64,000 nt of DNA from Candidatus Omnitrophota bacterium (GCA_945877765.1 CAMDWQ010000006.1:15046-79045), one strand, 5' to 3'. Positions 3,997 to 62,155 are shown, numbered from the stretch's first letter. Program-made: numbers and translations. Notes: generated by a model from the sequence alone, not told the origin.

Positions 3997-4118
3997 TCAA
4001 AGTAAATTTGGCATTACGTTTGCACCGGACATTGTTCAAGAAATAGGAATAGGCTCAAGCATCCCACTTAAAAAGCCCTCTACGATTCCCACCTGTTCTG
4101 TATTATAATGACAGGCTT

Positions 4119-14421: not shown

Positions 14422-14925
14422 ATGAAAAAGTATATTCTAGGTTTGGTTTTGTTTTTTGGTGTGGTTAATTTGGCTTATGCAGAAATTGCTTCAGAGAACG
14501 GAACGCCCGCCGTGGAAGGTCAGACAACAGTAACTGATAAAACAACGGTTACTACGGTCAATACTGTGGTCGAAGGATCTTCCACTGCCGCAGAAACCAA
14601 AGAAGTTGCAGCGCCCGCAGAAATTGCCGCCGCGCCTGCAGAAGCAACAACCGCTTCTACCCAAGCAGATCCAACCGAGAATCTTGAGTTTATTTCTGGG
14701 GAAGTAAGCGCTATTGACGAAGCCGCCAATACAGCGACTATCAAGCTTTATGGCGAGACAGAAAATACACCGGGTGATAAATCAATCACGGTGCAAGTTG
14801 ATGCTTCAACCGATATTACCGACGGCGAGAAAGACCGGACACTTAAGTCGCTTACCAGCGGAACAGAAGTGGACGTTGAGTACGATCCGGCGTCAAGCAA
14901 GGCAACCTATATTTTCGTTTATTAA
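14422..14925 (+). CDS. secreted Thr/Ala-rich protein, function unknown
   Basis: Signal peptide MKKYILGLVLFFGVVNLAYA, T-rich low-complexity middle region. Flanked by a consensus promoter and an intrinsic terminator. Confidence 0.5.
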   Translation: MKKYILGLVLFFGVVNLAYAEIASENGTPAVEGQTTVTDKTTVTTVNTVVEGSSTAAETKEVAAPAEIAAAPAEATTASTQADPTENLEFISGEVSAIDEAANTATIKLYGETENTPGDKSITVQVDASTDITDGEKDRTLKSLTSGTEVDVEYDPASSKATYIFVY

Positions 14926-18098: not shown

Positions 18099-18338
18099 AT
18101 GGAGCAGCTTATAGCGAGTTTCCCAAAAAATAAATTCGAGGAAGTGCGGGTGGCAATCAAAGAATTTAAAGGTTATGATTTATTGGATATCCGGGTGTAT
18201 GCCGCTACCAAAGACGGCGAGGAAAAGGTTCCTACGGGAAAAGGAATCTCTGTCAACGTCAGTCATTTTGCTGAGCTCAAGCAAGCTTTTTTGGCAGCCG
18301 AAAAGGTTTTGAAGGAGAACAATCTTCTTCATGAGTAA
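18099..18338 (+). CDS. PC4/YdbC-like small ssDNA-binding-fold protein
   Basis: 79 aa. EVRVAIKEFKGYDLLDIRVYA...PTGKGISV resembles the bacterial YdbC / eukaryotic PC4 fold pattern. GGAG RBS. Confidence 0.5.
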   Translation: MEQLIASFPKNKFEEVRVAIKEFKGYDLLDIRVYAATKDGEEKVPTGKGISVNVSHFAELKQAFLAAEKVLKENNLLHE

Positions 18339-19167
18339 AATTATTGAAGCGCTTAAGGGCAGCCGACTATCTACAGCGGATCAGCCTACTCAAGAAAAAG
18401 AGATTCTTTTTGAGAGGACCAGCCGTGAAATGACACAGGAGCAGCTGGCTGAGATCTATTTTTCAGCCACGGGAAAACCCAAGCCCGTAGAAGCCCCGAT
18501 CATCATCCGTGTGATCGAAAAACAAAGAATTGCTTCCGTTGTGCCATGGATAATCACATCGCTGGCTTTTTTGATAACTGCTTTTAGTCTTTTTTCTACC
18601 AAACGAATCTTTGTGGATATCCGTGTCGTGGATGAAAAAACAGCTTATGCGGTCAGCCAGAGCCAACCCACGGAAACTAATGACGAAAAAGTGCTTTCAA
18701 GTGAGAGTAGCCACTTTGATGAAGATCAAGGCAATAGCATTTCTTTGCAAGAATTTATTTTTGAGGGTGCCGCCTATCTCAAAAGCTCGCGAAACAGCAA
18801 CCTCTTGACCCTCGTCAACAGCTCGGTAGCACCTTTTGCGCGAGCAACCATCAATTTTGATCGGCCGCTCAATATGCGCAGAGGAAAGATTGTGTTCTAC
18901 GCCAAAGGGGCGAAGGGCGGGGAAAATTTGGCGCTGGCCCTGAAGGATGAAGACAACAACCAAGCTTTTTTGAGGGGTAAGAGGTACCCCTATCCTCAAG
19001 GACTTACCTCTTCATGGCAAAGAACGGAAATCGCGCTAACAGATCTTTCTAGTGAATTTAATCTTAAGAGCGTGACTACGCTCCGCTTTGAATTTGGATC
19101 AAAAGACACCGCTAACCGCCCCGGTGATACCATCCTCATCCGAGACCTTCGGTGGTTTTCAAACTAA
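18331..19167 (+). CDS. membrane-anchored protein, function unknown (candidate ParA partner)
   Basis: 278 aa. Roughly 80-aa N-terminal cytoplasmic region starting MSKIIEALKGSR, one transmembrane helix (VVPWIITSLAFLITAFSLFST), and a ~190-aa exported C-terminal domain. Start overlaps the upstream stop. Confidence 0.45.
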   Translation: MSKIIEALKGSRLSTADQPTQEKEILFERTSREMTQEQLAEIYFSATGKPKPVEAPIIIRVIEKQRIASVVPWIITSLAFLITAFSLFSTKRIFVDIRVVDEKTAYAVSQSQPTETNDEKVLSSESSHFDEDQGNSISLQEFIFEGAAYLKSSRNSNLLTLVNSSVAPFARATINFDRPLNMRRGKIVFYAKGAKGGENLALALKDEDNNQAFLRGKRYPYPQGLTSSWQRTEIALTDLSSEFNLKSVTTLRFEFGSKDTANRPGDTILIRDLRWFSN

Positions 19168-23945: not shown

Positions 23946-25151
23946 ATGAATAAAAAAGCATCGCTTCTGACCGTCTTTATTGTTGTTATGATTGATTTGA
24001 TTGGTTTTGGTATCGTGCTTCCGGGTCTTGAGACCTACGCTGCCGATTTTGGGGCGTCTGCTCTTCTCACCGGACTTATTTATAGTTCTTATTCATTCGC
24101 ACAGCTTATTTTTTCCCCGATTTGGGGCTCTCTGTCGGACCGCATCGGACGACGGCCGGTGATGATGATTAGCACACTCGGCGCTTCAGCCGCCTACCTT
24201 TTATTTGCGTTCAGCCACTCGCTTTGGATGCTTTTGTTCTGCAGGATTTTTGCAGGCGTCATGGCGGGAAATATTTCAGCAGCGCAAGCCTATGTGGCAG
24301 ACGTTACCGAAGAAAAAGACCGCGCCAAGGGCATGGGGTTGATTGGCGCCGCATTTGGCATCGGCTTTGTGGTGGGTCCCGCGCTGGGCGGAATCATCCT
24401 GAAATTCTTTCCAGGCAATCCCTTTAATGTCATTGGTCTTTTAGCGGCCGGTTTGTCTTTTTTGAGCTTTTTTCTTGTCATGACGTGTTTGCCGGAATCC
24501 CGCAGCAAAACAAATCCTGAGGCAGGCAATGAGGTTGTCCGCTCGGGCGTCTTCACAAAACTTTTCTGGACCCGCCTAAAAAAAATCAATTCGGATAGCC
24601 GTGGTGTTTTTCTTGGGCTTCTCATCAATGTGTTTCTTTTGACGCTGGGACAGGCCAGTATCTACGTGGCGTTTCCAAATTTCTGCCGCACGCAGCTTCA
24701 TCTGCCGGTGTCGGCGGTCTACCGTCAGTACATCCTAATGGGCTTGGTGGCCGTGGTAATTCAAGGCGGGTTGATCCGTGTCTTAGCTAAAAAATTCCCA
24801 GAACGCAAAATTTTTTGGCTGGGCAGTCTTCTTCTGGCCCTTGGACTTGGTTCTATTCCTTTCGCTCAAAACATTACGTCCTTAACCGCAGCTATGATGA
24901 TCATGACCGTTGGCGCAAGCTTAGCCGTGCCGGTACTAACCAGCATGATTTCCAAAGAATCCTCTCCTGAGAATTACGGCATGATACTGGGCATCTCGCA
25001 AAGTTTTTCAGCGATGGCGCGAGCCGTTGGACCGACGTGGGGCAGTGTGCTATTGGGCGTATCTTTCCACGCGCCTTTTGTCATCACCGCAGTTCTAGTA
25101 CTTTTGACGTTGCGGGTAGGCTTCACCAGCAAAGCATCCGCTGTCCGTTGA
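23946..25151 (+). CDS. MFS transporter
   Basis: ATG at 23946 directly after the uvrD stop. 12 transmembrane helix pattern, MFS motif GSLSDRIGRRPV. Confidence 0.8.
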   Translation: MNKKASLLTVFIVVMIDLIGFGIVLPGLETYAADFGASALLTGLIYSSYSFAQLIFSPIWGSLSDRIGRRPVMMISTLGASAAYLLFAFSHSLWMLLFCRIFAGVMAGNISAAQAYVADVTEEKDRAKGMGLIGAAFGIGFVVGPALGGIILKFFPGNPFNVIGLLAAGLSFLSFFLVMTCLPESRSKTNPEAGNEVVRSGVFTKLFWTRLKKINSDSRGVFLGLLINVFLLTLGQASIYVAFPNFCRTQLHLPVSAVYRQYILMGLVAVVIQGGLIRVLAKKFPERKIFWLGSLLLALGLGSIPFAQNITSLTAAMMIMTVGASLAVPVLTSMISKESSPENYGMILGISQSFSAMARAVGPTWGSVLLGVSFHAPFVITAVLVLLTLRVGFTSKASAVR

Positions 25152-25188
25152 CAGCTCTCCAAAGTTTTGACATAATCTCGCTATTCCC

Positions 25189-26049
25189 ATGACAGAAAAA
25201 ATAACTAATCCTGTTCGAAAGCTTTTTTTTGGGCTGTTTATATTCCCGCTAGTGATCGCGGTGGGAATGGCAGTGCTTCTTTGCAGTGTGGTGCTGGTTA
25301 CCAATGAAAAAGAGACGCCAGAAACTCTTATCGGCGCCATCAAATCAGGCACGCCGTCCAAGCGCTGGCAAAAAGCGTTTGAACTTTCCAATGAGCTGAA
25401 TAAAACTCATGGTCAGGCACCGCTGAACGCAGGCTTACAAAAAGAAATTCTCTATATTTTAAATGATTCTAGCGGCTACGACGAAAAAACACGCAGTTAT
25501 ATGGCAATGGCACTACATCATTTTCCAGGCAATGAATCAGTGACAGCGTTACAGAAAGCACTTAAAGATTCTTCACAAGAAGTTCAGATTGGCGCGCTCT
25601 GGACGCTAGGTTCTCTTGGCGCCAAAACAGCCACTTCGGACATTGAGTCTTTTTTGACCGCTGAAAAATCAGAGCTTCGTAAAATGGCCGCTTATATTTT
25701 AGGTGTGTTAGGCGAGAAGTCATCGGTACCAAAAATACGACCTCTTTTAAATGATGTGACGCCAGACGTCCAGTGGAATGCGGCGCTTGCTTTGGCGCGC
25801 CTTGGTGACATTTCAGGCTACAAGGTGCTAACGGGAATGCTGGATCGCCGCCAATTTTCTGAAGCAGGAACACAAGAAGCTCAGATTGAAGCGGCGATGA
25901 TCAACGCTATCAAAGGATTGACCTTGATTCAAAACCCCGAATCGATTAAAATCTTTGAATCTATTTCGCGTGAAGATAAGAATATGAAAGTGCGTCAAGC
26001 CGCGATTGATGCGCTTAACTATCAAAAAAAAATGAATAAGAATCTATGA
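25189..26049 (+). CDS. HEAT-repeat (PBS-lyase type) protein with N-terminal transmembrane helix
   Basis: Repeated ...VQ..A..ALG.LG... HEAT-like units, 286 aa. Stop overlaps the Rieske start (ATGA). Confidence 0.6.
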   Translation: MTEKITNPVRKLFFGLFIFPLVIAVGMAVLLCSVVLVTNEKETPETLIGAIKSGTPSKRWQKAFELSNELNKTHGQAPLNAGLQKEILYILNDSSGYDEKTRSYMAMALHHFPGNESVTALQKALKDSSQEVQIGALWTLGSLGAKTATSDIESFLTAEKSELRKMAAYILGVLGEKSSVPKIRPLLNDVTPDVQWNAALALARLGDISGYKVLTGMLDRRQFSEAGTQEAQIEAAMINAIKGLTLIQNPESIKIFESISREDKNMKVRQAAIDALNYQKKMNKNL

Positions 26050-26648
26050 GCGACGGCACTACTCAACCAGCAACAACAGGTCCCACAGCGATTCCGCCGC
26101 AAACTCCATCTACCGTCAAACCAGCGCCATCCAATCCCGCCAATACCGTTATGGGACCTGATAAAATTGATCGGCGTACGTTTATCTCGTGGGCAGGGGT
26201 GGCGTGGGTAAGTTTTGCCGCGGCCACCGGAGGGGCGCTTTCCATTGTTCTACGTTTTCTTTTCCCGAATGTTTTATTTGAACCCCCGACCGCGTTCAAG
26301 GCCGGCTTACCCAGTGATTACGAAGTGGGTGTGGTGGATGAGCGTTGGAAAGAAAAGTTTGGCGTATGGATGGTCCGCACAGCCGAAGGAATCTATGCCT
26401 TGTCGACCACTTGCACTCATCTAGGCTGCACACCCAATTGGCTCCCGGGTGAAGCAAAGTTTAAATGCCCCTGCCACGGAAGCGGTTTTTATAAAACCGG
26501 AATTAATTTTGAGGGACCTGCGCCACGACCTTTAGAAAGATACCGTATTTCTTACTCAGAAGACGGACAGATCGCGATTGATATGAGCAAAAAATTTCAA
26601 CAGGAAAAAGGGGAATGGAACAACCCCGAATCCTTCCTGACGGTCTAA
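26046..26648 (+). CDS. Rieske [2Fe-2S] protein of a cytochrome bc-type complex
   Basis: Rieske boxes CTHLGC and CPCHGS. Tat-like N-terminus RRTFISWAGVAW. Confidence 0.85.
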   Translation: MSDGTTQPATTGPTAIPPQTPSTVKPAPSNPANTVMGPDKIDRRTFISWAGVAWVSFAAATGGALSIVLRFLFPNVLFEPPTAFKAGLPSDYEVGVVDERWKEKFGVWMVRTAEGIYALSTTCTHLGCTPNWLPGEAKFKCPCHGSGFYKTGINFEGPAPRPLERYRISYSEDGQIAIDMSKKFQQEKGEWNNPESFLTV

Positions 26649-26677
26649 GACGGTTACACCCTATATAAGGAAGCGCT

Positions 26678-27478
26678 ATGGCAGATCCCGCACCAAAACC
26701 AAAATTTGACCTCGGAAAATACATCACTGAGACGCAGCTTTACAAATCCATGTTCCGCCATGGCTACACCACGTCGGACCGTGATCGCGCGCTGTCGGTC
26801 ATGACCAATGTCTTTTTCCATCTGCACCCGGTAAAAGTCCGAAAGTCGGGGGCACGTTTTGGATTTACTTGGTGTGCCGGCGGGCTTTCTTTTTTTGTGT
26901 TCCTGACACTGGTCGTCAGCGGCATTCTTTTGATGTTCTACTACCGGCCGACCGTGGAGCATGCGTATAATGATATCTTAGCGCTTCGCGAACACGTCCC
27001 CTTTGGAATTATGCGCGAACTTCACCGCTGGGGCGCCCACGCCATGATTATCACGGTGTGGCTGCACATGTTTCGTGTGTTTATGACGGGATCTTACAAA
27101 CCTCCGCGCGAATTTAATTGGGTGATCGGTGTGCTTCTTTTGGTTTTAACAATGCTTTTGAGTTTTACCGGTTATTTGCTTCCATGGGATCAGCTGGCGA
27201 TGTGGGCAATCACCGTCGGTAGCAACATGGCGCGCGCGACGCCCTTTTTGGGGCATGAGGGGCCCGGGGCTGCGCTTTTAGCGATCGGCGATATACAACT
27301 GGTCACGTCCGGCAGCGATGTACGCTTTGCTTTGCTGGGTGGACGCTTTGTGGGAGCGGGCGCTTTGCTTCGTTTTTATATTTTACACTGCGTGGCCATT
27401 CCGACCATTCTCGTTGTCTTAATGTCTGTCCATTTCTGGAGAATTCGCAAGGACGGCGGAATCAGCGGGCCCTTATAA
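26678..27478 (+). CDS. cytochrome b (b6-like N-terminal heme-binding subunit)
   Basis: 266 aa. Conserved His in transmembrane helices ([18 protein letters not shown]) and the PWDQLAMWA motif. Confidence 0.85.
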
Positions 27479-27481
27479 TCT

Positions 27482-28561
27482 ATGGAAGCGCTCAAACACT
27501 TTATTGACTCCGTTTCGTCTCCCGTTACCATTTTTACATTAGCCACGGTTCTTTTCGTCCTGTTTGTCAGCTTTCCCCGCATTTCTACCTCAAAACCCGT
27601 AAGTCTGCTGCTTCTTGCTTTGTTCCTTGCTTTCTTTGGATTGGGGCTCACCGATGAGCATTTTCGCGGCATCGTAACCACCCCCGACAATGTGCCGATC
27701 GTCGGTCTTATCGTGGTGTTTGGCTATTTCACATGGTACGCCATGAGAAAAGCCGTGATCAATGACATGCGAATGGAAAAAGGGGAGCCCACGGTCGAAC
27801 AAACCGAGACCAACGAAAAAGTCCTCGTGTTTCCCTATCTTATTTTTATCGAATTTGTAGTGGCGCTGGCTTATGGAGCAGGGCTTGTTCTGTGGTCGAT
27901 TTTTCTAAAAGCGCCGTTGGAGGAACCTGCCAATCCCATGGTTTCGCCCAATCCCAGCAAAGCGCCCTGGTATTTCTTGGGCTTGCAGGAGATGCTAGTT
28001 TATTTTGACCCCTGGATTGCCGGCGTGCTCCTGCCGACATTTATCATCATCGGCCTCTGCGCAATTCCTTATATCGATAGAGACACTTCGGGTTCAGGTT
28101 TTTACTCGTTTAAAAACCGCCGCTGGGTCATCACGACTTATCTTTTTGGCTTCTGGATTCTATGGATTCTCTTGATCGTCATGGGCACTTTCCTGCGCGG
28201 GCCCAACTGGAACTTCTTTGGGCCTTTTGAAGTATGGGATGTTCATAAGGTGGTGCCCTTGTTAAACGTCAATCTTTCCGAACTCATCTGGATCAAGTGG
28301 CTTGGCATCGGTTTGCCGAAAATGTGGTTTGTCCGAGAATTACCGGGAATTCTTATAGTTCTAGGCTTTCTTTTTATCACGCCCGTGATTTTGGCGAAGA
28401 CTGTGCTGAAGTCAGCTTTTAAAAAATTGGATCCGATTCGTTTTGGCATCCTGGTCCTGTTGGCGCTCATGATGCTTTCGCTCCCCATTAAAATGTATCT
28501 ACGGTGGGGCTTTAATTTAAAATACATCGTCGCCATTCCTGAGTTTTTCTTTAATATTTAA
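27482..28561 (+). CDS. cytochrome bc complex subunit IV-like (cytochrome b C-terminal domain) membrane protein, extended
   Basis: PWYFLGLQEMLVYFDPWIAGVLLP matches the PetD / cytochrome b C-terminal motif. 359 aa with extra transmembrane helices. Confidence 0.65.
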   Translation: MEALKHFIDSVSSPVTIFTLATVLFVLFVSFPRISTSKPVSLLLLALFLAFFGLGLTDEHFRGIVTTPDNVPIVGLIVVFGYFTWYAMRKAVINDMRMEKGEPTVEQTETNEKVLVFPYLIFIEFVVALAYGAGLVLWSIFLKAPLEEPANPMVSPNPSKAPWYFLGLQEMLVYFDPWIAGVLLPTFIIIGLCAIPYIDRDTSGSGFYSFKNRRWVITTYLFGFWILWILLIVMGTFLRGPNWNFFGPFEVWDVHKVVPLLNVNLSELIWIKWLGIGLPKMWFVRELPGILIVLGFLFITPVILAKTVLKSAFKKLDPIRFGILVLLALMMLSLPIKMYLRWGFNLKYIVAIPEFFFNI

Positions 28562-28562
28562 C

Positions 28563-31418
28563 ATGGCCAAACAATCCCCGACCCTCTACAGCGTTGCCAA
28601 GACATTTATTTGGTTTGCGGTGGTTAGCCTCGTTCTGACAGGCTGCCTGGTTGGCATCGTCATGACCGACTACAACCGCGAGTGGAAAAATTACCAGAAA
28701 AAATTTACTCAGCTCAAGATTGAAAAGGCCCGGGAAGAACTGAAGCTGGCAGCGCAGGGAATTGACAGCACCGAACTTGCCAGGTTTGAGACGGAGCTCA
28801 AAGCCGCTAAAATAGAGACCGCTTCTCGTCGGGCAGAGTCCGCCAGCCTGCAAAAAGAAAGCGCTGTCTTGGATACGAAAATTGCAAAAGCCAAAGCCAA
28901 GCACCAGGACCTTAAACAATTTTTAGATTCCGACCGCTATTACTTTGAAGAGTACCGCGAAAAAAAAGATACTCGCTCGGCGGATTACGAGAAAAAAGTA
29001 AATGGCTGGCTTCCGCGCGTGGCGGCGGCCAAATTGGATTTGGATGAGCTTCAAAAAGAAAAAGATGCCAAAGACGCCAAAATTGAAAGCTTTAGCGCCA
29101 AAGAAAAAGAAATTGAGCGCTCTATTGACAAATTGCTGGCGGATAAAACCCGCTTAGAAAAACGTATCAAAAATATTCAGCCAAGCCTAGCCAAAGATAT
29201 TTTGAACGCGCCTATGCTGGATTTCGTAGCGCCCACGATTAAAGTTCAGCAGATCGTTTTGGACAACCTTCAAGACGACTATCATTTTGCCAAGGTTCAA
29301 AAAGTCGACCGCTGCACCACTTGCCATCAAGGGATCGACCAAAAAGGCTTTGAAGACGCACCTCAGCCTTTCCGCACGCACTCCAAAATTGAACTTTATC
29401 TCGGATCCGCTTCTCCTCACCCGATGGAAACAATCGGCTGTACGGTTTGCCATAGCGGTAGCGGTCATTCGGTTGACTTTACCAATGCCGCACACACGCC
29501 ACGTGACGAAAATCAGGCGAAGGAGTGGAAGAAAAAATACAATTGGCACGAGCTTGAAAAATGGGAACATAAAATGCTTCCCGCGGGCACCACCCAGTCT
29601 TCCTGTGTTAAATGCCATAGCGGCGTAATAAAAGTGCCTCAGGCCGATCAATTAAATCGCGGCAGGAGGCTGGCCGAAACATTAGGCTGTTTCAATTGTC
29701 ATAAAATTAAAGGTTTTTCGACGGCGGGCGGCTCAGTTGCTGGGGGCGAAAATCTATGGAAGGTGGGGCCCGACCTTCAGTCTGTCGGCAGTAAGCTTTC
29801 AGAGGAATGGATCGCCAAATGGCTCGAGGACCCGGCAAACTTTAGACACTCCACCAAAATGCCCAAGGTTTTCAATCTTTCCAATACTTCTTCACCCGAG
29901 GATATGCAAAAGAATGCCGCGGCGATTCAGTCCATTGCTTCCTATCTCATTCATAATTCTGAGCCCGTCAATCTTTTGACGCCGCCCGTTCCAGGCAATG
30001 CGGCTAACGGCGAAAAACTGGTTAAGACGCTAGGCTGCCTTGGCTGCCACACGGGCGCAGGCAAGAATGCCGCTGATTTTGGGCCCGAGCTCACGGGGAT
30101 GGGAAGCAAAACCAGCGCAGCATGGATTTATACCTGGGTGAAAAACCCTAAACATATTTCTCCGGAGACCCGCATGCCGGACTTGCGCTTGTCCGACGAA
30201 GAAGCTTCGGATATCACGTCCTATTTAATAAGCTTACGCAATGAGCCGTTTGAAAACAAAACCGCGATGCCGGTAAAGCCGGAAGTTGTCGAGGAGATGA
30301 TCCTAACGAATCTTCAGGGAACCTTGAGTTCCGCCGAAGCGCGGGCAGAGCTTGAAAAAATGTCCGCTCGGGACAAGCTTCAGTATTTAGGCAAAAAATC
30401 GATTGTTCACCAAGGCTGCTTCACCTGCCACGCCATCAAGGGTTTTGAGGACGTAAAACCGATCGGCGCCGAACTTACCAATGAGGGCCAAAAAAATATT
30501 CACCAATTTGATTTTGGTTTTAGCGATATTCCTCGCACGCGGCATGACTTTATACGTCAAAAACTTAAAGATCCGCGCCTCTACGACCATGGCAAAGAAA
30601 AAGCTTATTACGATAAGCTTCGTATGCCGCAATTCCAATTGACGGATGAGGAGATTGACGCGCTCACCGTGTTTATCTTAAGCTTGACAGAAGAGCAGAT
30701 TCCTTTAGAAATGCAAAAAAGGCTAAACACCGCTGAGACAGAAATAGAGCACGGTCGGCTCCTTGTGAGTAAATTAAATTGTCATGGCTGTCACACGCTT
30801 GACGGCCAAACGGGCGTTATCCGTGAAATCACCGAAGACGCGGGCCAAATGCCGCCGATTCTTGAGGGGGAGGGTGGTAAAGTCCAGGAGAAGTGGCTAC
30901 GGCAATTTTTGGCGGATCCAAAACCAATACGGCCCTGGATTCAGTACCGCATGCCTACTTTCCATTTTTCGGGTGAGGAATTGACGGTGCTCAACAAATA
31001 CTTTAATCACTTATCTCACCAGGAGCTTTCGTACGAGGGCATCCAGATTCCCGAAACATCGGTAGAAAATCTAGCCGCAGGCAAACAGCTATTTGATACT
31101 TTTCAGTGTATCAAGTGCCATCAAATCAGCCAGGAAAGTGCCGCGATGGGCTCATCGTTTCTCGCTCCTGATCTGGCAATGACCAAGAGCCGTTTAAAAC
31201 CAGGCTGGGTCCATACTTGGCTGGAGGATCCCCAGCAGCTTGAACCTGGGACCATGATGCCCACTTACTTTAGTGACGGCCAGAGCCCTGTGGCTGATTT
31301 ACTAGAAGGGGATGCCAAAAAGCAGATTGATGCTATTCGCGCCTATCTGTATCGGTACGAACCCTCATCTACTCCCGCCGACTCCAAAATTACCCCAAAA
31401 GAAGCCAGCGAAAAATAA
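28563..31418 (+). CDS. membrane-anchored octaheme cytochrome c
   Basis: Eight CxxCH motifs: CTTCH, CTVCH, CVKCH, CFNCH, CLGCH, CFTCH, CHGCH, CIKCH. N-terminal transmembrane helix then ~200 aa of K/E-rich coiled coil. 951 aa. Confidence 0.85.
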   Translation: MAKQSPTLYSVAKTFIWFAVVSLVLTGCLVGIVMTDYNREWKNYQKKFTQLKIEKAREELKLAAQGIDSTELARFETELKAAKIETASRRAESASLQKESAVLDTKIAKAKAKHQDLKQFLDSDRYYFEEYREKKDTRSADYEKKVNGWLPRVAAAKLDLDELQKEKDAKDAKIESFSAKEKEIERSIDKLLADKTRLEKRIKNIQPSLAKDILNAPMLDFVAPTIKVQQIVLDNLQDDYHFAKVQKVDRCTTCHQGIDQKGFEDAPQPFRTHSKIELYLGSASPHPMETIGCTVCHSGSGHSVDFTNAAHTPRDENQAKEWKKKYNWHELEKWEHKMLPAGTTQSSCVKCHSGVIKVPQADQLNRGRRLAETLGCFNCHKIKGFSTAGGSVAGGENLWKVGPDLQSVGSKLSEEWIAKWLEDPANFRHSTKMPKVFNLSNTSSPEDMQKNAAAIQSIASYLIHNSEPVNLLTPPVPGNAANGEKLVKTLGCLGCHTGAGKNAADFGPELTGMGSKTSAAWIYTWVKNPKHISPETRMPDLRLSDEEASDITSYLISLRNEPFENKTAMPVKPEVVEEMILTNLQGTLSSAEARAELEKMSARDKLQYLGKKSIVHQGCFTCHAIKGFEDVKPIGAELTNEGQKNIHQFDFGFSDIPRTRHDFIRQKLKDPRLYDHGKEKAYYDKLRMPQFQLTDEEIDALTVFILSLTEEQIPLEMQKRLNTAETEIEHGRLLVSKLNCHGCHTLDGQTGVIREITEDAGQMPPILEGEGGKVQEKWLRQFLADPKPIRPWIQYRMPTFHFSGEELTVLNKYFNHLSHQELSYEGIQIPETSVENLAAGKQLFDTFQCIKCHQISQESAAMGSSFLAPDLAMTKSRLKPGWVHTWLEDPQQLEPGTMMPTYFSDGQSPVADLLEGDAKKQIDAIRAYLYRYEPSSTPADSKITPKEASEK

Positions 31419-31507
31419 AATTTTATTGCTAAAGAACCCCATTCGGCGCTAGAATGAGGTTGTCTTTTTAGCTCAATACACCCTCAATCCAATTATCGGG
31501 AGCAACA

Positions 31508-32212
31508 ATGAAGAATCGTTTTTTTCTGCCTTTTTTAACACTTTTAGCTGTTTTTTTAGCGTTCCAGTCGTCCGCAGATGCCTCCGTTGTGACCGTGAAA
31601 GCTGATTTTTCGGGTACGGCGCCGGCAGCGGACAAACTTAAATTGGACGCGGATCCAAAATGCAAGATGATGCACGCAGATGGGCTTATGTCAGACGAGG
31701 TTCTTGTCAACCCGAATGGCACCTTAAAGAATGTGTTTATTTATGTCAAGTCCGGCCTTGAGGGTAAAAAGTTTGACAGTCCCAAAACCCCCGTCATTTT
31801 TGATCAAATTGGCTGCCATTATACGCCGAAAGTTTTCGGCGTCATGGTGAATCAGCCCGTTGAGATCCGAAACAGCGATGACACGCTTCACAACGTCCAT
31901 GCGCTGCCCGCCAATAGCAGCCAATTTAATCTTGGCATGCCTATCAAGGGGATGAAGCTTACCAAAACCTTCGCCAAGCCTGAAGTCATGGTCAAAATTA
32001 AGTGCGAGGTTCATTCATGGATGAAAGCCTATGCCGGCGTTGTCAGCAATCCATTTTACGGGGTTACCTCGGACGAGGGAACCGTCATGTTAAAAGATCT
32101 TCCTCCTGGTGACTATGTGATTGAATCATGGCATGAAAAATACGGCACCCAGGAACAAAAGGTGACAGTGTCCGACAGCGACCAAGCGGTCGATTTTAAA
32201 TTTTCAGCCTAA
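31508..32212 (+). CDS. secreted cupredoxin-like (type-1 copper) protein with C-terminal Ig-like domain
   Basis: Signal peptide. Candidate copper ligands are His in TLHNVHA and the amicyanin-like loop CEVHSWM (C-x2-H-x2-M). Assignment is tentative. Confidence 0.45.
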   Translation: MKNRFFLPFLTLLAVFLAFQSSADASVVTVKADFSGTAPAADKLKLDADPKCKMMHADGLMSDEVLVNPNGTLKNVFIYVKSGLEGKKFDSPKTPVIFDQIGCHYTPKVFGVMVNQPVEIRNSDDTLHNVHALPANSSQFNLGMPIKGMKLTKTFAKPEVMVKIKCEVHSWMKAYAGVVSNPFYGVTSDEGTVMLKDLPPGDYVIESWHEKYGTQEQKVTVSDSDQAVDFKFSA

Positions 32213-32267
32213 GGCTGATCCGCCTTGAGGCGGGAGCGCTGATTCTGAATTCCAAGTTTTAATCTAT

Positions 32268-32312
32268 CCGCCCATTCGAACGGAAAACCGCGCCGAATGG
32301 GCGGATTTATTT
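32268..32312 (+). terminator. rho-independent terminator
   Basis: ccgcccattcgaa / ccgaatgggcgg stem followed by atttatttt. The ATG at 32297 used by the ORF track lies inside this hairpin. Confidence 0.55.
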
Positions 32313-32323
32313 TAAGGGGTTTT

Positions 32324-34057
32324 ATGTTTAACCAGAGGCTTCATTTTTTTTCTTGTTTTGTGGCGGCGTCGACACTCGTCTTAATCATCGCCGGGGGGCT
32401 TGTCACAAGCACCGGCTCAGGGCTTTCGGTGCCGGATTGGCCGCTTTCCTACGGCCAATTTTTTCCCCCCATGATCGGCGGGATCCGCTTTGAGCATACC
32501 CACCGAGTCATTGCTGCCACGGTTGGTATCTTGACGCTTATTTTGACCTGTTTTTTTCTTTACAGTGAAAAGAGGGTTTGGGTAAAGTCTTTGAGCGTTG
32601 TTGCTTTATTCATGGTTGTGGCCCAGGCCTTACTAGGAGCCGCAACGGTAATCTATCTATTGCCGGACCCGATTTCAGTTTCGCACGCCTGCCTGGGACA
32701 AACCTTCTTTGTGCTTCTGTGCTTGTTGGCGCTATTTACTTCGCGCCAGTGGCTCCAAAAACCAACTTTTGCCGTCAAGCGCGCCGGAACCATTCAACGC
32801 CTGTTCCTAACAACCACTTTTTTTATTTTTCTGCAGTTGATCTTTGGAGCGATGGTCCGTCACACGGAAGATCATCGCGGGCTCAACTATCATTTTGCCA
32901 CCGCTTTTTTAATCCTTGTGCACGTCATCTTCATCGTACCTAAAGTGACTAAAGAAAAAGAGGCACAAGTCGTTTTCTTAAAACCTCTTATGTTTTTGGC
33001 AACCCTCGTGGCATCCCAAATTTTTCTCGGCTTAGGTTCCTACATTTATAAAATTGTGATGGCTCCCGCCGCGATGCCCCGAACGGCCGAAGTGCTCATG
33101 ACGACCGCCCATCAAACCAATGGAGCCCTCATTTTGGCCGTCACGACAGTTCTGACCGTCAGCTCTTTTCGATATCTTACCAATTTAAAAAAGGATAAAA
33201 CTACGTCGCTAGTGGGGGACTACATCTCCCTGACAAAGCCCCGCCTGACTCTACTGGTATTAGCGAGCACTTCTTTAGGATTTTTGATGGCGGGGACAGG
33301 ATCATTGCCGACGGCGCTTCTTTTTCATACTCTTCTGGGTTGCGCGCTCATCGGCGGGGGAATTAACGCCCTCAATCAATACCTGGAGAGATTTATTGAT
33401 GCCAAGATGAAGCGCACCGCCAATCGCCCCATTCCCAGTGGCCGGCTAGAGGCTCAGCACGGACTTATTTTTGGCTGCATCCTCACCATCATCGGAGTTG
33501 TCTACTTATTTGCCCTTACCAACGCGCTGGCGGGCTTTTTAGGTGTCTTAACCGTCATAAGCTACGTCTTCTTGTACACGCCGCTGAAACAAAAAACTTC
33601 CTTGAACACTTTCGTTGGGGCCGTCGCCGGCGCTTTGCCTTGTATCATTGGGTGGGTGGCCAGGGAGAATGCGCTGCCTGTGGGCGCGTGGGTTATATTT
33701 CTAATCCTCTTTTTTTGGCAATTACCTCACTTTTTTGCGATTGCCTGGGTTTACAAGGAGGATTATGACGGCAGCGGGCTTAAAATGTTGACGCGGCAAG
33801 ATCCTGACGGCCGCGCCACAGGCCTTAAAATTATCCTCAGCTCAATTCTGCTTTTTCCGTTCACATTGCTTCCTGTTTGGGCGGGGATTGGCCAGCAACT
33901 CTATTCGGTGGCAGCCATTCTAGCGGGAACTTTTTTTATTTTTGCCGCCCTCTTGCTTTACAGGCGGCGCATGGTCCACGCCAAAAAGTTTGTCAGCCTG
34001 TCCATTTATTACCTTCTTATCCTGATTCTTGCCATGGTAGCCGATAAAATTTTATGA
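32324..34057 (+). CDS. ctaA-ctaB: heme A synthase (CtaA/COX15) fused to protoheme IX farnesyltransferase (CtaB/CyoE)
   Basis: ATG at 32324 after AAGGGG. The N-terminal ~300 aa are a polytopic His-rich CtaA-like domain. The C-terminal ~290 aa are a UbiA prenyltransferase domain (FLYTPLKQKTSLNTFVGAVAGALPCIIGW). Confidence 0.75.
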   Translation: MFNQRLHFFSCFVAASTLVLIIAGGLVTSTGSGLSVPDWPLSYGQFFPPMIGGIRFEHTHRVIAATVGILTLILTCFFLYSEKRVWVKSLSVVALFMVVAQALLGAATVIYLLPDPISVSHACLGQTFFVLLCLLALFTSRQWLQKPTFAVKRAGTIQRLFLTTTFFIFLQLIFGAMVRHTEDHRGLNYHFATAFLILVHVIFIVPKVTKEKEAQVVFLKPLMFLATLVASQIFLGLGSYIYKIVMAPAAMPRTAEVLMTTAHQTNGALILAVTTVLTVSSFRYLTNLKKDKTTSLVGDYISLTKPRLTLLVLASTSLGFLMAGTGSLPTALLFHTLLGCALIGGGINALNQYLERFIDAKMKRTANRPIPSGRLEAQHGLIFGCILTIIGVVYLFALTNALAGFLGVLTVISYVFLYTPLKQKTSLNTFVGAVAGALPCIIGWVARENALPVGAWVIFLILFFWQLPHFFAIAWVYKEDYDGSGLKMLTRQDPDGRATGLKIILSSILLFPFTLLPVWAGIGQQLYSVAAILAGTFFIFAALLLYRRRMVHAKKFVSLSIYYLLILILAMVADKIL

Positions 34058-34665
34058 CTTTTGAAAAAATTTCTTTTAAAAAAAGGCACGTCTACTTTAT
34101 TATTTTTAATTTAATCGCTCTTCCGGCACTCTTTTTTTTAAGCAGGCAGGTTATTGCTTTGCGGGAAAAAACCCCCGAAAAACCGCTGACCGTTTACGGC
34201 ACTTTAAGGCCTTTCGAACTCACCAGTCATACCGGCAAGAGGTTCGGCCTTGAACACATGAAAAATAGAGTTTGGGTGGCCAACTTCATGTTCAGCCACT
34301 GCCCGAATGAATGCCCTGCGATGAATTTTAAAATCGGGCTCTTACAGGAGTCTCTTGGCAAAGAGGCTGGTTTTCTTTCTTTTAGCGTAGATCCGGAAAA
34401 AGATACGCCTGCTGTTTTACAGGATTATGCCAAACGATTTAATGCCAAGGAAGACGTCTGGTTTTTTCTCACGGGCCCCAAAACCGTCATCAGTCGGATT
34501 TTGGAGGATTGTCATTTTGCCGATGCGGAAGACCCGCTTTTGCACGGGCTTCGCCTTGTCCTTTTGGACGACAAAGGCCAGGTCCGCGGATATCATGATT
34601 ACTCCGACCCATTTTTAATAAAAAATTTAACCCACGCCATTCAGCTGCTTAAAGAAAAAGGATAA
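34054..34665 (+). CDS. SCO1/SenC copper chaperone
   Basis: Thioredoxin-like fold with the HCPNECP (CxxxCP) copper-binding motif and an N-terminal membrane anchor. Confidence 0.75.
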   Translation: MTFEKISFKKRHVYFIIFNLIALPALFFLSRQVIALREKTPEKPLTVYGTLRPFELTSHTGKRFGLEHMKNRVWVANFMFSHCPNECPAMNFKIGLLQESLGKEAGFLSFSVDPEKDTPAVLQDYAKRFNAKEDVWFFLTGPKTVISRILEDCHFADAEDPLLHGLRLVLLDDKGQVRGYHDYSDPFLIKNLTHAIQLLKEKG

Positions 34666-34669
34666 ATCG

Positions 34670-35278
34670 ATGACTCAAGCTTCTGCAAAAAAAGAAAATA
34701 CGATTCTCTGGTGGATTGGCTGGATTGTGCTAACCATCGTCTCTTTTTTCATTGCCTGTTATTTTTGGACCGGCTTCATCGCAAAACACGTCGGCAATAT
34801 CAATCAGCCCGGAGTTTCGGTTCTGTGGGTGGCGGCTGTTTTTGGCTCCTGGATGGTTCTTTTGGTGCCGCTCATCATCGTCATGTACAACAAAGTAGAC
34901 CGCGCTTACGAAGATACAAGAATACAGCGCGAGTCCGACACGCTTAAGAAAAATCTAAAAGGGGCGCTCCTCCGCAGCGTTTTGGTGCCCGAAACCGACC
35001 GATTGCTTCCCAAAAAATTCTCAGATGAGCTGCGAAAAGTGCCGCGCTCCATTCACCGGGGCCATCTGGTAACCGTTATTTTAAAAAATGGTAAGAATTT
35101 TGAGCATGTTTTTGTTTTGGATCGCCGGGAAATTTTAGGGATTTATGATGCCCAAACGCTTCCTTTTAGGGTGGAAGATATCGCCGCCCTAAAGCCGGCC
35201 GATTTAAATCATTTACCGGTTTTTGAAACAAAAAAATGGCTGCGTTTGGACGGCGCGGGGAGCCCTTTGGCGGCATGA
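34670..35278 (+). CDS. membrane protein, function unknown
   Basis: Two N-terminal transmembrane helices then a ~120-aa soluble domain. No motif recognised. Sits in the respiratory cluster. Confidence 0.4.
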   Translation: MTQASAKKENTILWWIGWIVLTIVSFFIACYFWTGFIAKHVGNINQPGVSVLWVAAVFGSWMVLLVPLIIVMYNKVDRAYEDTRIQRESDTLKKNLKGALLRSVLVPETDRLLPKKFSDELRKVPRSIHRGHLVTVILKNGKNFEHVFVLDRREILGIYDAQTLPFRVEDIAALKPADLNHLPVFETKKWLRLDGAGSPLAA

Positions 35279-35457
35279 AACCAACTCTTTTCTGGCTGGG
35301 ACGCTCGTTCCAACTTTTATCGCTTCTGGTGCTGCCTTCGGCAATTTGGGCCGCCGAATTCTATCACAGCGAAGTGCTTTCGGTAGGTATTCTTGTAGCG
35401 GCGCTTTTAGCTTTTGCGGCGGGTTATTTCTTGACTCAAATGGCTGTCAAGTTATAA
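35275..35457 (+). CDS. small two-transmembrane-helix membrane protein
   Basis: ATG at 35275 overlaps the upstream TGA (ATGA). 60 aa, two hydrophobic helices. Confidence 0.35.
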   Translation: MKPTLFWLGRSFQLLSLLVLPSAIWAAEFYHSEVLSVGILVAALLAFAAGYFLTQMAVKL

Positions 35458-35461
35458 TTAA

Positions 35462-35845
35462 ATGATGCTTGAATCCTACTTCCAAAACGAAGAAACACTC
35501 CACAAAGCCCAAGAGCGCGCTGCCGAAAGAATCGCCAAACCACCCCGCAAAAAGGCGCCGCCAAAACTTGCCGTGATTAATCAAAACGGCTGCACCGGCT
35601 GTGAAGTTTGCATTGTTTTTTGTCCGGTGGATTGCATTGAGATTGTGCCCGGCATGCAGCATACCCAGCTTCAGCAAGTCGTCGAAGTGGACTTGGCGCG
35701 CTGCATTGGTTGTTCTCTTTGCGCCAAAAATTGCCCCTGGGACACGATCGACATGATCTCCCACGATGAGGCGGTCCGCAGCGCACCTTCCGTGACTCTG
35801 CAAAGCGTCTGCGGCCAAAAAACGATCAATGACGCTGCCGCTTAA
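35462..35845 (+). CDS. 4Fe-4S dicluster ferredoxin-domain protein
   Basis: CTGCEVCIVFCPVDC and CIGCSLCAKNCP cluster motifs, with a ~45-aa basic N-terminal extension. Confidence 0.7.
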   Translation: MMLESYFQNEETLHKAQERAAERIAKPPRKKAPPKLAVINQNGCTGCEVCIVFCPVDCIEIVPGMQHTQLQQVVEVDLARCIGCSLCAKNCPWDTIDMISHDEAVRSAPSVTLQSVCGQKTINDAAA

Positions 35846-35851
35846 AGCGCT

Positions 35852-36787
35852 TTAAATCTTCGATTCAATAAAATCCGCCACACTTTCCTGGATTTTTTTC
35901 CGATAAAGGAAATTAATTTCGGGGATGCCGGAAGGACTGGTTACGTTGATTTCAGTCAAATAGCGCCCCATCACATCCACCCCCGTAAAATACAGACCAT
36001 TTTCTTCGAGGAATGGGCTGATACGGCGGACAATCTTAAGATCATCAGCGCCCAAGGTAGTGCGGTGCATCGATCCCCCGACGCTTAAGTTGGAGCGAAA
36101 GTCGCCGCCGGATGGCTTTCTGGCAAAAACACCCAACACATTGCCATTTAAAATTAAGATTCGCCGATCGGCCATTCCCGGAGATTCAATAAAGCGCTGC
36201 ACCATAATGTTTTTTTTAGAAAATCCAGTAGCGATATCGAGAAGGGAGGAGAGGTTGGAGTCGCCAACGCCGGTTGCCAGAATTCCAGAGCCCGCTTTTT
36301 GATCTAATGGCTTGACGACAACACGTTTCTTAAGTTTCTGGATGAAATTTTTAGCTTCCGCGGCGTTTTGCGTCACCAACGTTTCGGGAATCAGTTCGTC
36401 AAAATTCAGAATGGCCAGCTTCTCGTTGACAAGCATGATGCCGCGTGGCTGGTTCAGCAGAAAAACCCGACCTCTCAAAAGATCCAGGATTTGCATGGCA
36501 TACAGATAGCCGCTGTCAAATGGGGGCTCCTTGCGAATAAAAATGGCATCAAAATTGGTCAAAGCCACCGCTGCCTTGGAGAGGGGGGAAGCCAAGAAAC
36601 CTTTGCGAGAGTCCAGCCGAGAAGTGTACAGGTAAGCCTTAGGAGACCCTTTTTCAGCCACCAGGTGCTGGCTTTCAAAGTGGCTAACCGCATGCCCGCG
36701 CCTTAACAGCTCGTGCATGATCCAAAAAGAGCTGTCTTCGTCAACTTTTACGCCCACCGTGGGGTAGAGTAGAAAAGCGATTCTCAT
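35852..36787 (-). CDS. gshB: glutathione synthetase (ATP-grasp)
   Basis: Starts MRIAFLLYP. The track's longer ORF to 36838 adds 17 residues that I rejected. Prokaryotic GshB N-terminal domain and ATP-grasp. Confidence 0.75.
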   Translation of the reverse strand: MRIAFLLYPTVGVKVDEDSSFWIMHELLRRGHAVSHFESQHLVAEKGSPKAYLYTSRLDSRKGFLASPLSKAAVALTNFDAIFIRKEPPFDSGYLYAMQILDLLRGRVFLLNQPRGIMLVNEKLAILNFDELIPETLVTQNAAEAKNFIQKLKKRVVVKPLDQKAGSGILATGVGDSNLSSLLDIATGFSKKNIMVQRFIESPGMADRRILILNGNVLGVFARKPSGGDFRSNLSVGGSMHRTTLGADDLKIVRRISPFLEENGLYFTGVDVMGRYLTEINVTSPSGIPEINFLYRKKIQESVADFIESKI

Positions 36788-36832
36788 AATTCGTTTGCAC
36801 CCCTTTGAAATATTACTTATTATAACATAGCG

Positions 36833-38131
36833 ATGCATACCACCCTTACGTTTAACGATCTATATGACTACTTTCTCCGCGGCTGTAAAAAAACAACGGA
36901 CTTTCAAATCGGTGTTGAGTGGGAAAAGATTGGCGTCTACCGTGATTCCGGCAAAGCGATTACCTATTCGGGAGAGCGCGGAGTGGAGGCTATTTTTCGT
37001 AATCTGATTCAAAAACACGGTTGGAAATCCGCTTTTTCCCACCACCCTGTTATCGCTCTAACAAAGGGCAGCGGCTCAATCACGCTCGAACCGGGAGGCC
37101 AAATTGAGCTCTCAGGCCAAAAGGCGCATCTAATCCAGGACAATGCGCGCGAACTTTACATGCACCTGGAAGAAATTCGCTCGATCTCAGAAAGTTTGGG
37201 CATCGTTTGGCTGGGAATTGGCGCCCAGCCCTACAGTGTAGCCGAAGACATTGACTGGGTTCCTAAAGAGCGCTACAAGATTATGCGTGAAAATTTGAAA
37301 GATTCCGGCGCGCTGACTTTTTTGATGATGAAAGAAACGGCGTCCGTTCAAGTGTCGCTGGATTATGGCAGTGAAAAAGACGCTATTCACAAGCTCAAAT
37401 TAGCGATGGGGTTATCTCCTTTTTTAACCGCAATGTTTGCTAATTCACCGTTAAGAGACGGCAAGCCCAGCGGCTATCTTTCACGAAGGGCTCACATCTG
37501 GGAGCACACAGCCCCGGAAAGATCGGGAATTTTGTGGGAGGAGCTGGATCCCGCCGCAGGTTTTAAAAATTATATCGAGTATGCCCTGGATGTCCCGATG
37601 CTTTTTCTCATGCGAAAAAACCAGTGGGTGGGTGTCCGCGGAATTAACTTTAGAGGTTTTATGAAAAAGGGTTATGAGGGCATGAGCCCTACGATCGAGG
37701 ATTGGGAGATGCACTTAAGTGGTATTTTTACGGAAGCGAGGCTAAAAAATTATATCGAGATACGCAGCATTGATTGCCAAAAAACGCCCATGGGCTTGGC
37801 CGCCGTCGCCTTCATCAAGGGCCTTTTTTATTCCGAAGATTCCCTAAAAAAAGCCGGCCAAATGCTGTCAGGTTTTACCGGCAAAGATCTAAAAAAACTT
37901 CACAGCGAAGCTTCAATTCAAGGCCTGAAAGCCACGCTCCCTGACGGCCAAAGTATCACGGAAATCTGCGCCGAGTTGATTCGTTTGGCGGAAGACGGCC
38001 TTGGGGATGAAAAAAAATATCTTGAACCCTTAAAATTGAATATCGAAAAAAAAATAACGCCGGCGGAGATAATTTTGAATTGTTTTGATGCCAACAAGCC
38101 CATCTTAAGCTGTGCCGCCATCGAAGGCTGA
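36833..38131 (+). CDS. gshA: glutamate--cysteine ligase (GCS2 family)
   Basis: 432 aa. N-terminal FQIGVEWEKIGV pattern of the GCS2/plant-type gamma-glutamylcysteine synthetase. Divergent from gshB. Confidence 0.7.
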   Translation: MHTTLTFNDLYDYFLRGCKKTTDFQIGVEWEKIGVYRDSGKAITYSGERGVEAIFRNLIQKHGWKSAFSHHPVIALTKGSGSITLEPGGQIELSGQKAHLIQDNARELYMHLEEIRSISESLGIVWLGIGAQPYSVAEDIDWVPKERYKIMRENLKDSGALTFLMMKETASVQVSLDYGSEKDAIHKLKLAMGLSPFLTAMFANSPLRDGKPSGYLSRRAHIWEHTAPERSGILWEELDPAAGFKNYIEYALDVPMLFLMRKNQWVGVRGINFRGFMKKGYEGMSPTIEDWEMHLSGIFTEARLKNYIEIRSIDCQKTPMGLAAVAFIKGLFYSEDSLKKAGQMLSGFTGKDLKKLHSEASIQGLKATLPDGQSITEICAELIRLAEDGLGDEKKYLEPLKLNIEKKITPAEIILNCFDANKPILSCAAIEG

Positions 38132-62151: not shown

Positions 62152-62155
62152 GAGG

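Follow-up and report, generated by a model that had tools for sequence, protein, structure and literature searches.

A b6f-like Rieske/cytochrome b locus with an octaheme cytochrome c and haem A/O synthesis genes, without linked oxidase genes, in an Omnitrophota bacterium

The closest described counterparts of the system considered here are the Rieske/cytochrome b complexes of the APWY clade, which combine a split cytochrome b, an APWY motif, and a CxGG motif with the cysteine for haem ci, and which occur in delta-proteobacteria, Nitrospirales, Planctomycetes, Chloroflexi, and other groups (Kao & Hunte 2014, PMC4122944); that paper states that no member of the clade had been characterised. The system is encoded by eleven co-directional open reading frames (ORFs) on the plus strand at positions 25189-35845 of a 64-kb stretch of DNA from an Omnitrophota bacterium (CAMDWQ010000006.1:15046-79045), the whole of which is called the window below. 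We confirmed that the locus is a genuine respiratory gene cluster, encoding a b6f-like quinol-oxidising complex together with an eight-haem cytochrome, and a literature search for this complex in Omnitrophota returned no report. The reading that we favour, with moderate confidence, is that a b6f-like complex of the APWY clade, the octaheme, and a cupredoxin form an oxidase-less derivative of a bc-aa3-type system, whose electrons still go to an unlinked terminal enzyme, probably a haem-A-containing member of the haem-copper oxidase (HCO) superfamily. The eleven genes are the following.

25189-26049, plus strand: HEAT/PBS-lyase-like repeat protein, 286 aa (Pfam HEAT_2, E=3.6e-25), with one transmembrane (TM) helix at residues 18-36
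26046-26648, plus strand: Rieske [2Fe-2S] subunit, 200 aa (Pfam Rieske, E=4e-9), with CTHLGC at residue 123, CPCH at 141, and the twin-arginine motif RRTF at 43
26678-27478, plus strand: cytochrome b6-type subunit, 266 aa (Pfam Cytochrome_B, N-terminal, b6-like)
27482-28561, plus strand: extended subunit-IV-like protein, 359 aa (Pfam Cytochrom_B_C), with about 7-8 TM helices
28563-31418, plus strand: membrane-anchored octaheme cytochrome c, 951 aa, with exactly eight CxxCH motifs (Pfam FixO, Cytochrom_C, and c3/c7 matches)
31508-32212, plus strand: predicted secreted type-1 (blue) copper cupredoxin with a C-terminal CarboxypepD_reg-like beta-sandwich, 234 aa (from fold model and ligand residues)
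32297-34057, plus strand: fused CtaA (residues about 1-300) and CtaB (about 300-586), 586 aa (Pfam COX15-CtaA and UbiA)
34054-34665, plus strand: membrane-anchored SCO1/SenC copper chaperone, 203 aa (Pfam SCO1-SenC, 74 bits against a cut-off of 22.8), with CPNEC (CxxxC) at residue 83
34670-35278, plus strand: two-TM membrane protein (unk1), 202 aa, with no match to a Pfam or NCBIfam family
35236-35457, plus strand: small hydrophobic protein, 73 aa, a gene call in public assemblies
35462-35845, plus strand: cytoplasmic 2x[4Fe-4S] ferredoxin, 127 aa (Pfam Fer4 families), with two CxxCxxCxxxCP motifs

Domains were assigned to the eleven proteins by Pfam and NCBIfam scans. A preliminary description of this DNA had listed these same genes; all of the ORFs are present where it placed them, and its inventory is correct because the scans and the count of eight CxxCH motifs agree with it.

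The core of the complex is recognisable from alignments with cytochrome b6f. Cytochrome b could be aligned over its full length with cytochrome b6 of known structure (E about 2e-40), and its His116, His130, His237, and His252 fall on the haem bL/bH ligands of b6 in 2zt9 and 7r0w. Cys66, in the WCAGG (CxGG) motif at residue 65, aligns with Cys35 in the YCLGG of b6, the covalent haem ci/cn site, and this cysteine is kept in at least 90% of 53 cytochrome b homologues. The extended subunit IV was aligned with subunit IV of b6f over the Qo loop, where its APWY (residue 161) lies opposite PEWY, and its N- and C-terminal extensions are strongly conserved among 62 homologues of about 360 aa. The sequence marks of the Rieske/cytochrome b superfamily were found, namely the CxHxGC and CxCH boxes of the Rieske protein, the four histidines for the b haems, and a Qo motif of PEWY type in its variant APWY. 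From these sequences we infer that the Rieske protein, cytochrome b, subunit IV, and the octaheme would assemble as a complex with quinol oxidation.

Judged on motifs, the predicted complex matches the APWY clade, with a split b6/subunit IV pair, APWY, the CxGG cysteine, and an occurrence in several phyla, and the nearest curated model for its cytochrome b is ExtP of Geobacter. The fixed partners found here, that is, the HEAT protein, the 360-aa subunit IV, and a coiled-coil octaheme of 930-950 aa, and the ancestral link to an A-type oxidase are not mentioned for the clade in the accessible part of Kao & Hunte (PMC4122944). ExtP was the top NCBIfam model, at 266.5 bits against a cut-off of 290, and its partner ExtQ scored 53 against 150, so that an assignment to the ExtP/ExtQ pair, the b-type pair of Geobacter selenite/tellurite reduction, was rejected. 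With cytochrome b6f and Bacillus QcrABC, the locus shares a b6-type cytochrome b, the haem ci cysteine, a separate subunit IV carrying the Qo loop, and a PetC-like Rieske protein, for which the closest NCBIfam models are of PetC type, at scores under their cut-offs. It differs from both in that there is no cytochrome f, no cytochrome c domain on subunit IV, a subunit IV more than twice as long, proline in place of the Qo glutamate, and a c subunit with eight haems. Cytochrome b6f proper was likewise rejected, the scores being 65.7 against 250 for PetC, 194 against 325 for cytochrome b6, and 20 against 127 for subunit IV, with the octaheme as c subunit and no cytochrome f.

The complex had been described as one of Planctomycetes, anammox, or Nitrospira style, which is roughly right insofar as its features are those of the multi-phylum APWY clade. 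The Rieske/cytochrome b operons of anammox bacteria encode an octaheme similar to hydroxylamine oxidoreductase (HAO) and NAD(P)-binding flavoprotein subunits. What the locus shares with the system of the anammox organism Kuenenia is a Rieske/cytochrome b core with multihaem c subunits in an organism of the PVC superphylum. An anammox-type assignment was rejected, as neither an HAO-like octaheme nor an NAD(P)H-binding flavoprotein domain was found in any of the eleven proteins, and the octaheme present here consists of c3/c7-like, CcoO-like, and class-I domains.

The domains of this octaheme are arranged in the order TM helix, coiled coil of about 170 aa, three c3/c7-like haems, one CcoO/FixO-like haem domain, and four class-I domains. 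Five (K/R/M)MP methionines are invariant, matching five sites of His/Met type, and the first three haems are probably bis-His ligated, as suggested by the extra invariant histidines His273, His286, and His311. The AlphaFold (AF2) model of the octaheme has a pLDDT of 74, with a confident coiled coil; a fold search of the model against the PDB returned coiled coils only, none of them significant, and a sequence search of the PDB gave merely CcoO-like and class-I cytochrome fragments, with no solved structure of this architecture. Database searches recovered 932 homologues, of which the named ones belong almost all to Candidatus Omnitrophota/Omnitrophica, and a scan with one genome per species showed that relatives are encoded by 270 species-level genomes. 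The octaheme gene follows subunit IV directly (1-nt gap) and is kept there in all loci, which makes its product the functional counterpart of cytochrome c1/f, in line with the earlier proposal that it replaces this subunit.

The gene next to it encodes a protein with no Pfam or NCBIfam assignment save a weak CarboxypepD_reg match. It had been termed cupredoxin-like, a call that the two databases leave without support and that is borne out by the predicted fold and the copper ligands. An AF2 model built from 30 homologues has a pLDDT of 87, and Foldseek matched it with amicyanin, pseudoazurin, and plastocyanin (probability 1.0, E to 2e-6), as well as with the cupredoxin domain of Thermus NirK; some homologues have been named 'plastocyanin' by JGI. 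The ligand residues His128/His131 (HNVH at 128), Cys166, His169, and Met172 (C166-x2-H169-x2-M172) do not vary among 59 locus-derived and 30 database sequences. As it also has a signal peptide, the protein is most plausibly a periplasmic electron carrier with type-1 copper, whose binding is predicted from the model and the ligand residues. A 1496-aa protein of a Planctomycetota metagenome-assembled genome (MAG) (L078, 8504-12994) has a C-terminal domain homologous to this cupredoxin, with 40% identity over about 200 residues.

The respiratory context of the locus becomes apparent from its relatives. In 80 related loci (numbered with L where they have to be told apart), ORFs were called and labelled by BLAST against the window proteins and the Pfam-verified oxidase genes of two relatives. 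Over these loci, which represent six phyla or more, the five-gene module keeps its order and orientation. HEAT, Rieske, cytochrome b, subunit IV, and octaheme follow one another in this way in Omnitrophota, in Acidobacteriota (Vicinamibacteria and others), in Bacteriovoracales, and in one genome labelled Planctomycetales; one Binatia and one Bacteroidota locus have the same core with no detectable HEAT gene. COX1 lies within 10 kb in at least 20 of the 80 loci, and COX1/COX2 were found in L051, L044, L047, L067, and L087. The octaheme gene of L051, L044, and L047 is followed by cupredoxin, COX2 fusion, COX1, CtaA, CtaB, COX3, COX4, epimerase, SCO1, and DUF420. L087 and L088 start with resB, ccsA, and HEAT and, farther on, have cupredoxin, COX2 fusion, COX1, CtaA, CtaB, two ABC genes, SCO1, DUF420, an unk1-like gene, and later the ferredoxin, the ABC-transporter pair standing where COX3/COX4 stand in L051-type loci. 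In Bacteriovorax, COX3, DUF420, CtaAB, COX2, and COX1 lie downstream of the module. The preliminary description had inferred an A-type haem-copper oxidase from the maturation genes, and these relatives, with COX2-COX1(-COX3-COX4) in the same operon, uphold that inference.

In the oxidase-bearing relatives, COX2 is fused N-terminally to the same cupredoxin and CarboxypepD_reg module that is encoded as a free protein in the window (L051, 7839-9329; L087, 13559-15442; also L044, L047, and L049). The fused copies, too, keep the copper ligands without variation, and they provide an A-type oxidase with an unusual blue-copper entry domain. Neighbour-joining analysis of the cupredoxin family did not discriminate between the free and the COX2-fused copy as the ancestor of the window's free cupredoxin. 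By analogy, the oxidase-bearing relatives look like the design of the actinobacterial CIII2CIV2 supercomplex (QcrCAB with CtaCDEF), where bc and aa3 genes are likewise closely associated and a multi-haem c subunit on complex III replaces soluble cytochrome c. The present system differs in that its c subunit has eight haems and not two, a blue-copper domain is placed between cytochrome and CuA, cytochrome b is split, and the window has no oxidase genes.

Two further observations concern the position 5' of the HEAT gene. In L087, ResB and CcsA of system II cytochrome c biogenesis are encoded directly 5' of HEAT (2917-6338), and L034, L036, L037, L041, L042, L046, and L057 have ORFs of matching size (about 560-610 aa; size only) at the ResB/CcsA place. 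In the window's clade, UvrD and an MFS transporter are encoded there instead.

This clade comprises 26 species-level loci with octaheme identities of roughly 54-76%, including those of Omnitrophus fodinae and of the name-giving genome of class 2-02-FULL-51-18. Its loci share their flanks and the order cupredoxin, CtaA, CtaB, (SCO1), unk1, small ORF, ferredoxin. By ORF labelling, the oxidase structural genes and DUF420 are absent from all 26. Since the relatives keep the oxidase genes and the clade shares the rest of the order without them, the locus is an oxidase-less derivative of a conserved bc-oxidase (bc-aa3-type) operon. The genes removed did not adjoin one another ancestrally, where COX2-COX1 came first, COX3-COX4 or the ABC pair next, and DUF420 last; the oxidase genes thus look to have been lost selectively and not moved as one block. 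The locus had been presented as unusual; the absence of oxidase subunits from it stands, but it is no unusual stand-alone design, since it derives from a widely conserved bc-oxidase operon.

In the electron path that we infer, quinol would be oxidised at an APWY Qo site built by cytochrome b6 and the extended subunit IV. The first electron would pass from the Rieske cluster to the membrane-anchored octaheme, and the second from haem bL to bH, probably on to a covalent haem ci, and to the Qi site, the net result being a proton-motive Q cycle. The octaheme would most likely hand its electrons on to the secreted blue-copper protein of the neighbouring gene. In the presumed ancestral state, as in the relatives, the cupredoxin and the cupredoxin-COX2 fusion would feed the A-type haem-copper oxidase of the same operon, whereas in the window's lineage the chain would end at a terminal enzyme of another locus, most probably an oxidase with haem A; in this proposal, that oxidase is the reason why CtaA, CtaB, and SCO1 are retained.

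The state of the maturation genes bears directly on this proposal. The CtaB part scored 264 bits with the NCBIfam haem O synthase equivalog cyoE_ctaB (cut-off 210), and Glu66, His69, His130, His189, and His272 of CtaA are kept in at least 97% of 37 homologues. Searches with tblastn recovered full-length ctaA from each of the 26 clade loci and full-length ctaB from each of the 25 that could be assessed (one contig ends early). With these copies full-length and the catalytic residues conserved, haem O/A is probably still needed, and its synthesis is, as far as these sequences tell, under continued selection in a clade without a linked oxidase. It is nevertheless conceivable, and in our judgement highly improbable, that the maturation genes are non-functional relics of the lost oxidase and that only the five bc genes matter. 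SCO1 was found by tblastn in just 14 of the 24 assessable clade loci, its loss amounting to about 45% of the clade. The distance ratios of CtaA/CtaB to the octaheme are 1.20-1.31 in oxidase-less loci compared with 1.06-1.10 in oxidase-bearing ones, a slightly faster evolution. The loss of SCO1 and these rates would suit decay, but the ORFs are intact in 26 (ctaA) and 25 (ctaB) lineages at 42-75% identity, with the catalytic Glu/His residues at 97% or more, and neutral sequence would not remain open over such divergence.

Where the haem A would be used is a separate matter, and several results tell against the unlinked oxidase that we favour, the uneven keeping of SCO1, the loss of DUF420, and the CtaA/CtaB rates among them. 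No COX1, COX2, or COX3 was found among the Pfam-annotated ORFs of at least 150 aa (nearly all such ORFs) over the 64-kb window. The preliminary description had noted that the locus holds no oxidase subunits and had stated that oxidase genes immediately outside the window would make it an ordinary bc-aa3 supercomplex locus; within the few kb recovered past either end there is none, the genes there being IMPDH, FTHFS, and FTCD_C on the left and PilZ and HTH on the right. For the rest of the clade we used a proxy, in which the COX1 of L051 served as query and the contigs of its 120 best matches, all of at least 65% identity, were paired by size with those of the octaheme matches; it is blind to divergent HCO or nitric oxide reductase (NOR) enzymes and to other contigs of the same genome. 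The proxy was validated by P0071 and P0155, which lie on one and the same 145,201-bp contig, with the genes adjacent, and it recovered oxidase-bearing relatives only (contigs of 145,201, 44,113, 35,353, and 101,058 bp). Clade contigs of 1.59 Mb and of 399, 295, 242, 241, 221, 193, 170, and 162 kb, all with octaheme matches, have no counterpart among the 120 best COX1 matches, and those of 204 and 159 kb (L016 and L015) are likewise unpaired. Cytochrome c oxidase was reported in only 18 species of three respiratory Omnitrophota classes (Seymour et al. 2023, PMC10066038), a study whose accessible part does not discuss the bc complex. Taken together, the oxidase-negative searches, the loss of SCO1 and DUF420, the CtaA/CtaB rates, and the figure of 18 species leave real room for genomes without any haem-copper oxidase, and the evidence that an unlinked oxidase is absent is suggestive, though short of conclusive.

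Given these results, the lineage could have no haem-copper oxidase at all, its chain leading to an acceptor other than oxygen in the periplasm or outside the cell, for instance Cu-nitrite reductase, N2O reductase, metals, or a partner cell, and its haem O/A serving a non-oxidase protein, possibly this very cytochrome b. We consider this unlikely, although it fits all of the observations made here. It would account for ctaA and ctaB standing beside bc genes in every assessable clade locus with no linked oxidase, for about 4 Mb of large clade contigs without a COX1 among the 120 best matches, and for the dispensability of SCO1 and DUF420, and it agrees with an oxidase being present in a minority of respiratory Omnitrophota (Seymour et al. 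2023, PMC10066038). A precedent exists in the archaeal quinol-oxidising 'ba' complexes, described with haem a in PMC12808453, SoxC/'ba' having A-type haems. On the other hand, the COX1 comparison covers the 120 best matches, at 65% identity or more, and would miss a divergent oxidase or NOR; ctaAB belongs plainly to the oxidase operon in relatives; and no sequence feature ties haem A to this cytochrome b. To our knowledge, haem A in such a cytochrome b has no bacterial precedent. The wider claim, that at least 26 species-level Omnitrophota lineages do without a haem-copper oxidase and still make haem O/A, with haem A in a non-oxidase protein (by analogy with archaeal SoxC/'ba', the b6-type cytochrome would be the candidate) and with the octaheme and cupredoxin leading to a non-oxygen or extracellular acceptor, seems to us decidedly unlikely.

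The favoured path, from quinol through the octaheme and cupredoxin to an unlinked oxidase, could in principle also run backwards, with a periplasmic or extracellular donor delivering electrons through cupredoxin and octaheme to quinone, uphill and driven by the proton-motive force. A reversed Q cycle has been proposed for an APWY-clade complex of Geobacter metallireducens (cited by Kao & Hunte, PMC4122944) and also for the bc1 of Acidithiobacillus ferrooxidans, which has Pro at the second Qo position and rusticyanin as partner, and a blue-copper protein is encoded beside the complex here too. Like the rus/pet system of A. ferrooxidans (rusticyanin, aa3, and a bc1 with PPWY), the present one combines a cupredoxin with a bc complex whose second Qo position is Pro and, among its relatives, with an A-type oxidase. 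However, the cytochrome b of A. ferrooxidans belongs to another clade (Kao & Hunte, PMC4122944), and there is here neither an outer-membrane cytochrome of Cyc2 type nor a sign of acidic habitat, the source genome and related genomes coming mostly from groundwater or soil. The module and the oxidase share one operon in relatives, which fits downhill flow, and the locus has no outer-membrane cytochrome or porin and no known donor-oxidising enzyme. Reverse operation is thus very unlikely.

The layout of the locus was also considered. Intergenic distances over the first nine genes are, in order, -4, 29, 3, 1, 89, 84, -4, and 4 nt; the 73-aa ORF overlaps the 3' end of the 202-aa gene and stops 4 nt ahead of the ferredoxin gene. 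Two promoter-like sites were found.

25148-25176, plus strand: sigma-70-like promoter match, the best of the region, TTGACA-17-CATAAT with an extended -10 TG (11/12 positions; consensus match only), 12 nt 5' of the HEAT gene
35431-35458, plus strand: second promoter-like site, just 5' of the ferredoxin gene

That the eleven genes are chance neighbours on unrelated transcripts is hardly credible. The gaps of 89 and 84 nt flanking the cupredoxin gene and the promoter-like site of the ferredoxin gene would allow for separate transcripts, but dozens of species from different phyla share this gene order, HEAT-Rieske and ctaAB-sco have overlapping start and stop codons, and no convincing terminators were found. 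The terminator previously placed after the cupredoxin gene is not supported, as the hairpin has no T-run and terminator-like sites are not enriched in the region (21) over shuffled sequence (16.9 +/- 3.9).

The HEAT protein shows weak NblB/CpcE-like matches, and its domain would face the periplasm by the positive-inside rule applied to its sequence; it may have a role in the complex. Homologues are encoded directly 5' of Rieske in 47 loci, including those of Acidobacteriota and Bacteriovoracales. The HEAT protein and the ferredoxin had been regarded as oddities for a bc complex, a view that does not hold for either, the former being the conserved first gene of the module across phyla and the latter recurring in relatives that retain oxidase genes. 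The ferredoxin is kept at the end of the locus in the window's clade and in the oxidase-bearing relative L088, and may have a role in the system. In a Bacteroidota MAG (L082, 1241-1757), a ferredoxin homologue with 53% identity is encoded directly 5' of Rieske, the slot of the HEAT gene elsewhere. Both of the proteins listed as unidentified membrane proteins come from genuine conserved genes (34670-35278 and 35236-35457). The first, unk1, has a conserved place behind SCO1/DUF420 whether or not a locus bears oxidase genes, and tblastn puts the 73-aa ORF at its usual position in 20 further loci, among them L051 and L043 with their oxidase genes.

The core features of an APWY-clade Rieske/cytochrome b complex, a relative of b6f and of the bc complex of Bacillus, were known. 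New is a coherent sub-family that combines a HEAT protein and a long subunit IV with a coiled-coil octaheme and a type-1 copper partner, carried by about 270 species-level genomes of at least six phyla; new as well are its ancestral coupling to an A-type oxidase via the cupredoxin-COX2 fusion and the oxidase-less yet haem-A-competent derivative seen in the window. Among the carriers, the MAGs L066-L070 and L076 bear the label Bacteriovorax; since this genus has cultured members, experiments on the complex may be feasible. If an oxidase is encoded elsewhere, as we favour, the locus would simply be a split bc-aa3 system. If complete genomes turned out to have no oxidase, the universal retention of haem A synthesis would imply an unknown bacterial use of haem A, and, should haem A serve a non-oxidase protein, the first one in bacteria outside haem-copper oxidases; the 'aerobic' markers ctaA, ctaB, and SCO1 would then have to be read differently in metabolic reconstructions from metagenomes. 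Two KEGG entries matter in this respect, K02257 and K02259, which we take to be COX10/CtaB and COX15/CtaA. Both are included in the 'cytochrome c oxidase' module M00154 of Seymour et al. (PMC10066038). With CtaB and CtaA counted in M00154, oxidase-less genomes could score as partially 'aerobic' in module-based reconstructions.

The flanks of the locus consist of housekeeping genes, with UvrD and the MFS transporter upstream and glutathione synthetase, GCS2 ligase, and ABC transporter genes downstream; succinyl-CoA synthetase and malate dehydrogenase are encoded farther out in the window. The glutathione synthetase (minus strand) and the GCS2-type glutamate-cysteine ligase lie directly 3' of the locus (35852-38131). 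ORFs matched in size and strand were found 3' of the locus throughout the oxidase-less clade, the glutathione genes being annotated in L001 only. At the start of the window, FolD and MTHFR are encoded (146-1850), and just upstream of it, in L083 (224-3626), are a formate-THF ligase, an FTCD_C cyclodeaminase-like gene, and IMPDH, which together form a folate or methyl-branch-like gene run. A 628-aa ORF at 53851-55737 (minus strand) has no Pfam match at E <= 1e-5, and the same applies to the ORFs at 2213-3055, 14422-14925, and 18331-19167. Three consecutive small PilZ-domain genes (61789-63359) adjoin a gene for a cNMP-binding patatin-like phospholipase (59695-61782). A haem biosynthesis cluster of hemAXCDBL-like order lies 14 kb upstream of the respiratory locus (4967-11378); it encodes a CcsA/HemX-like 'Cytochrom_C_asm' protein, glutamyl-tRNA reductase, porphobilinogen deaminase, a uroporphyrinogen methyltransferase/HemD fusion, ALA dehydratase, and a class-III aminotransferase (HemL-like).

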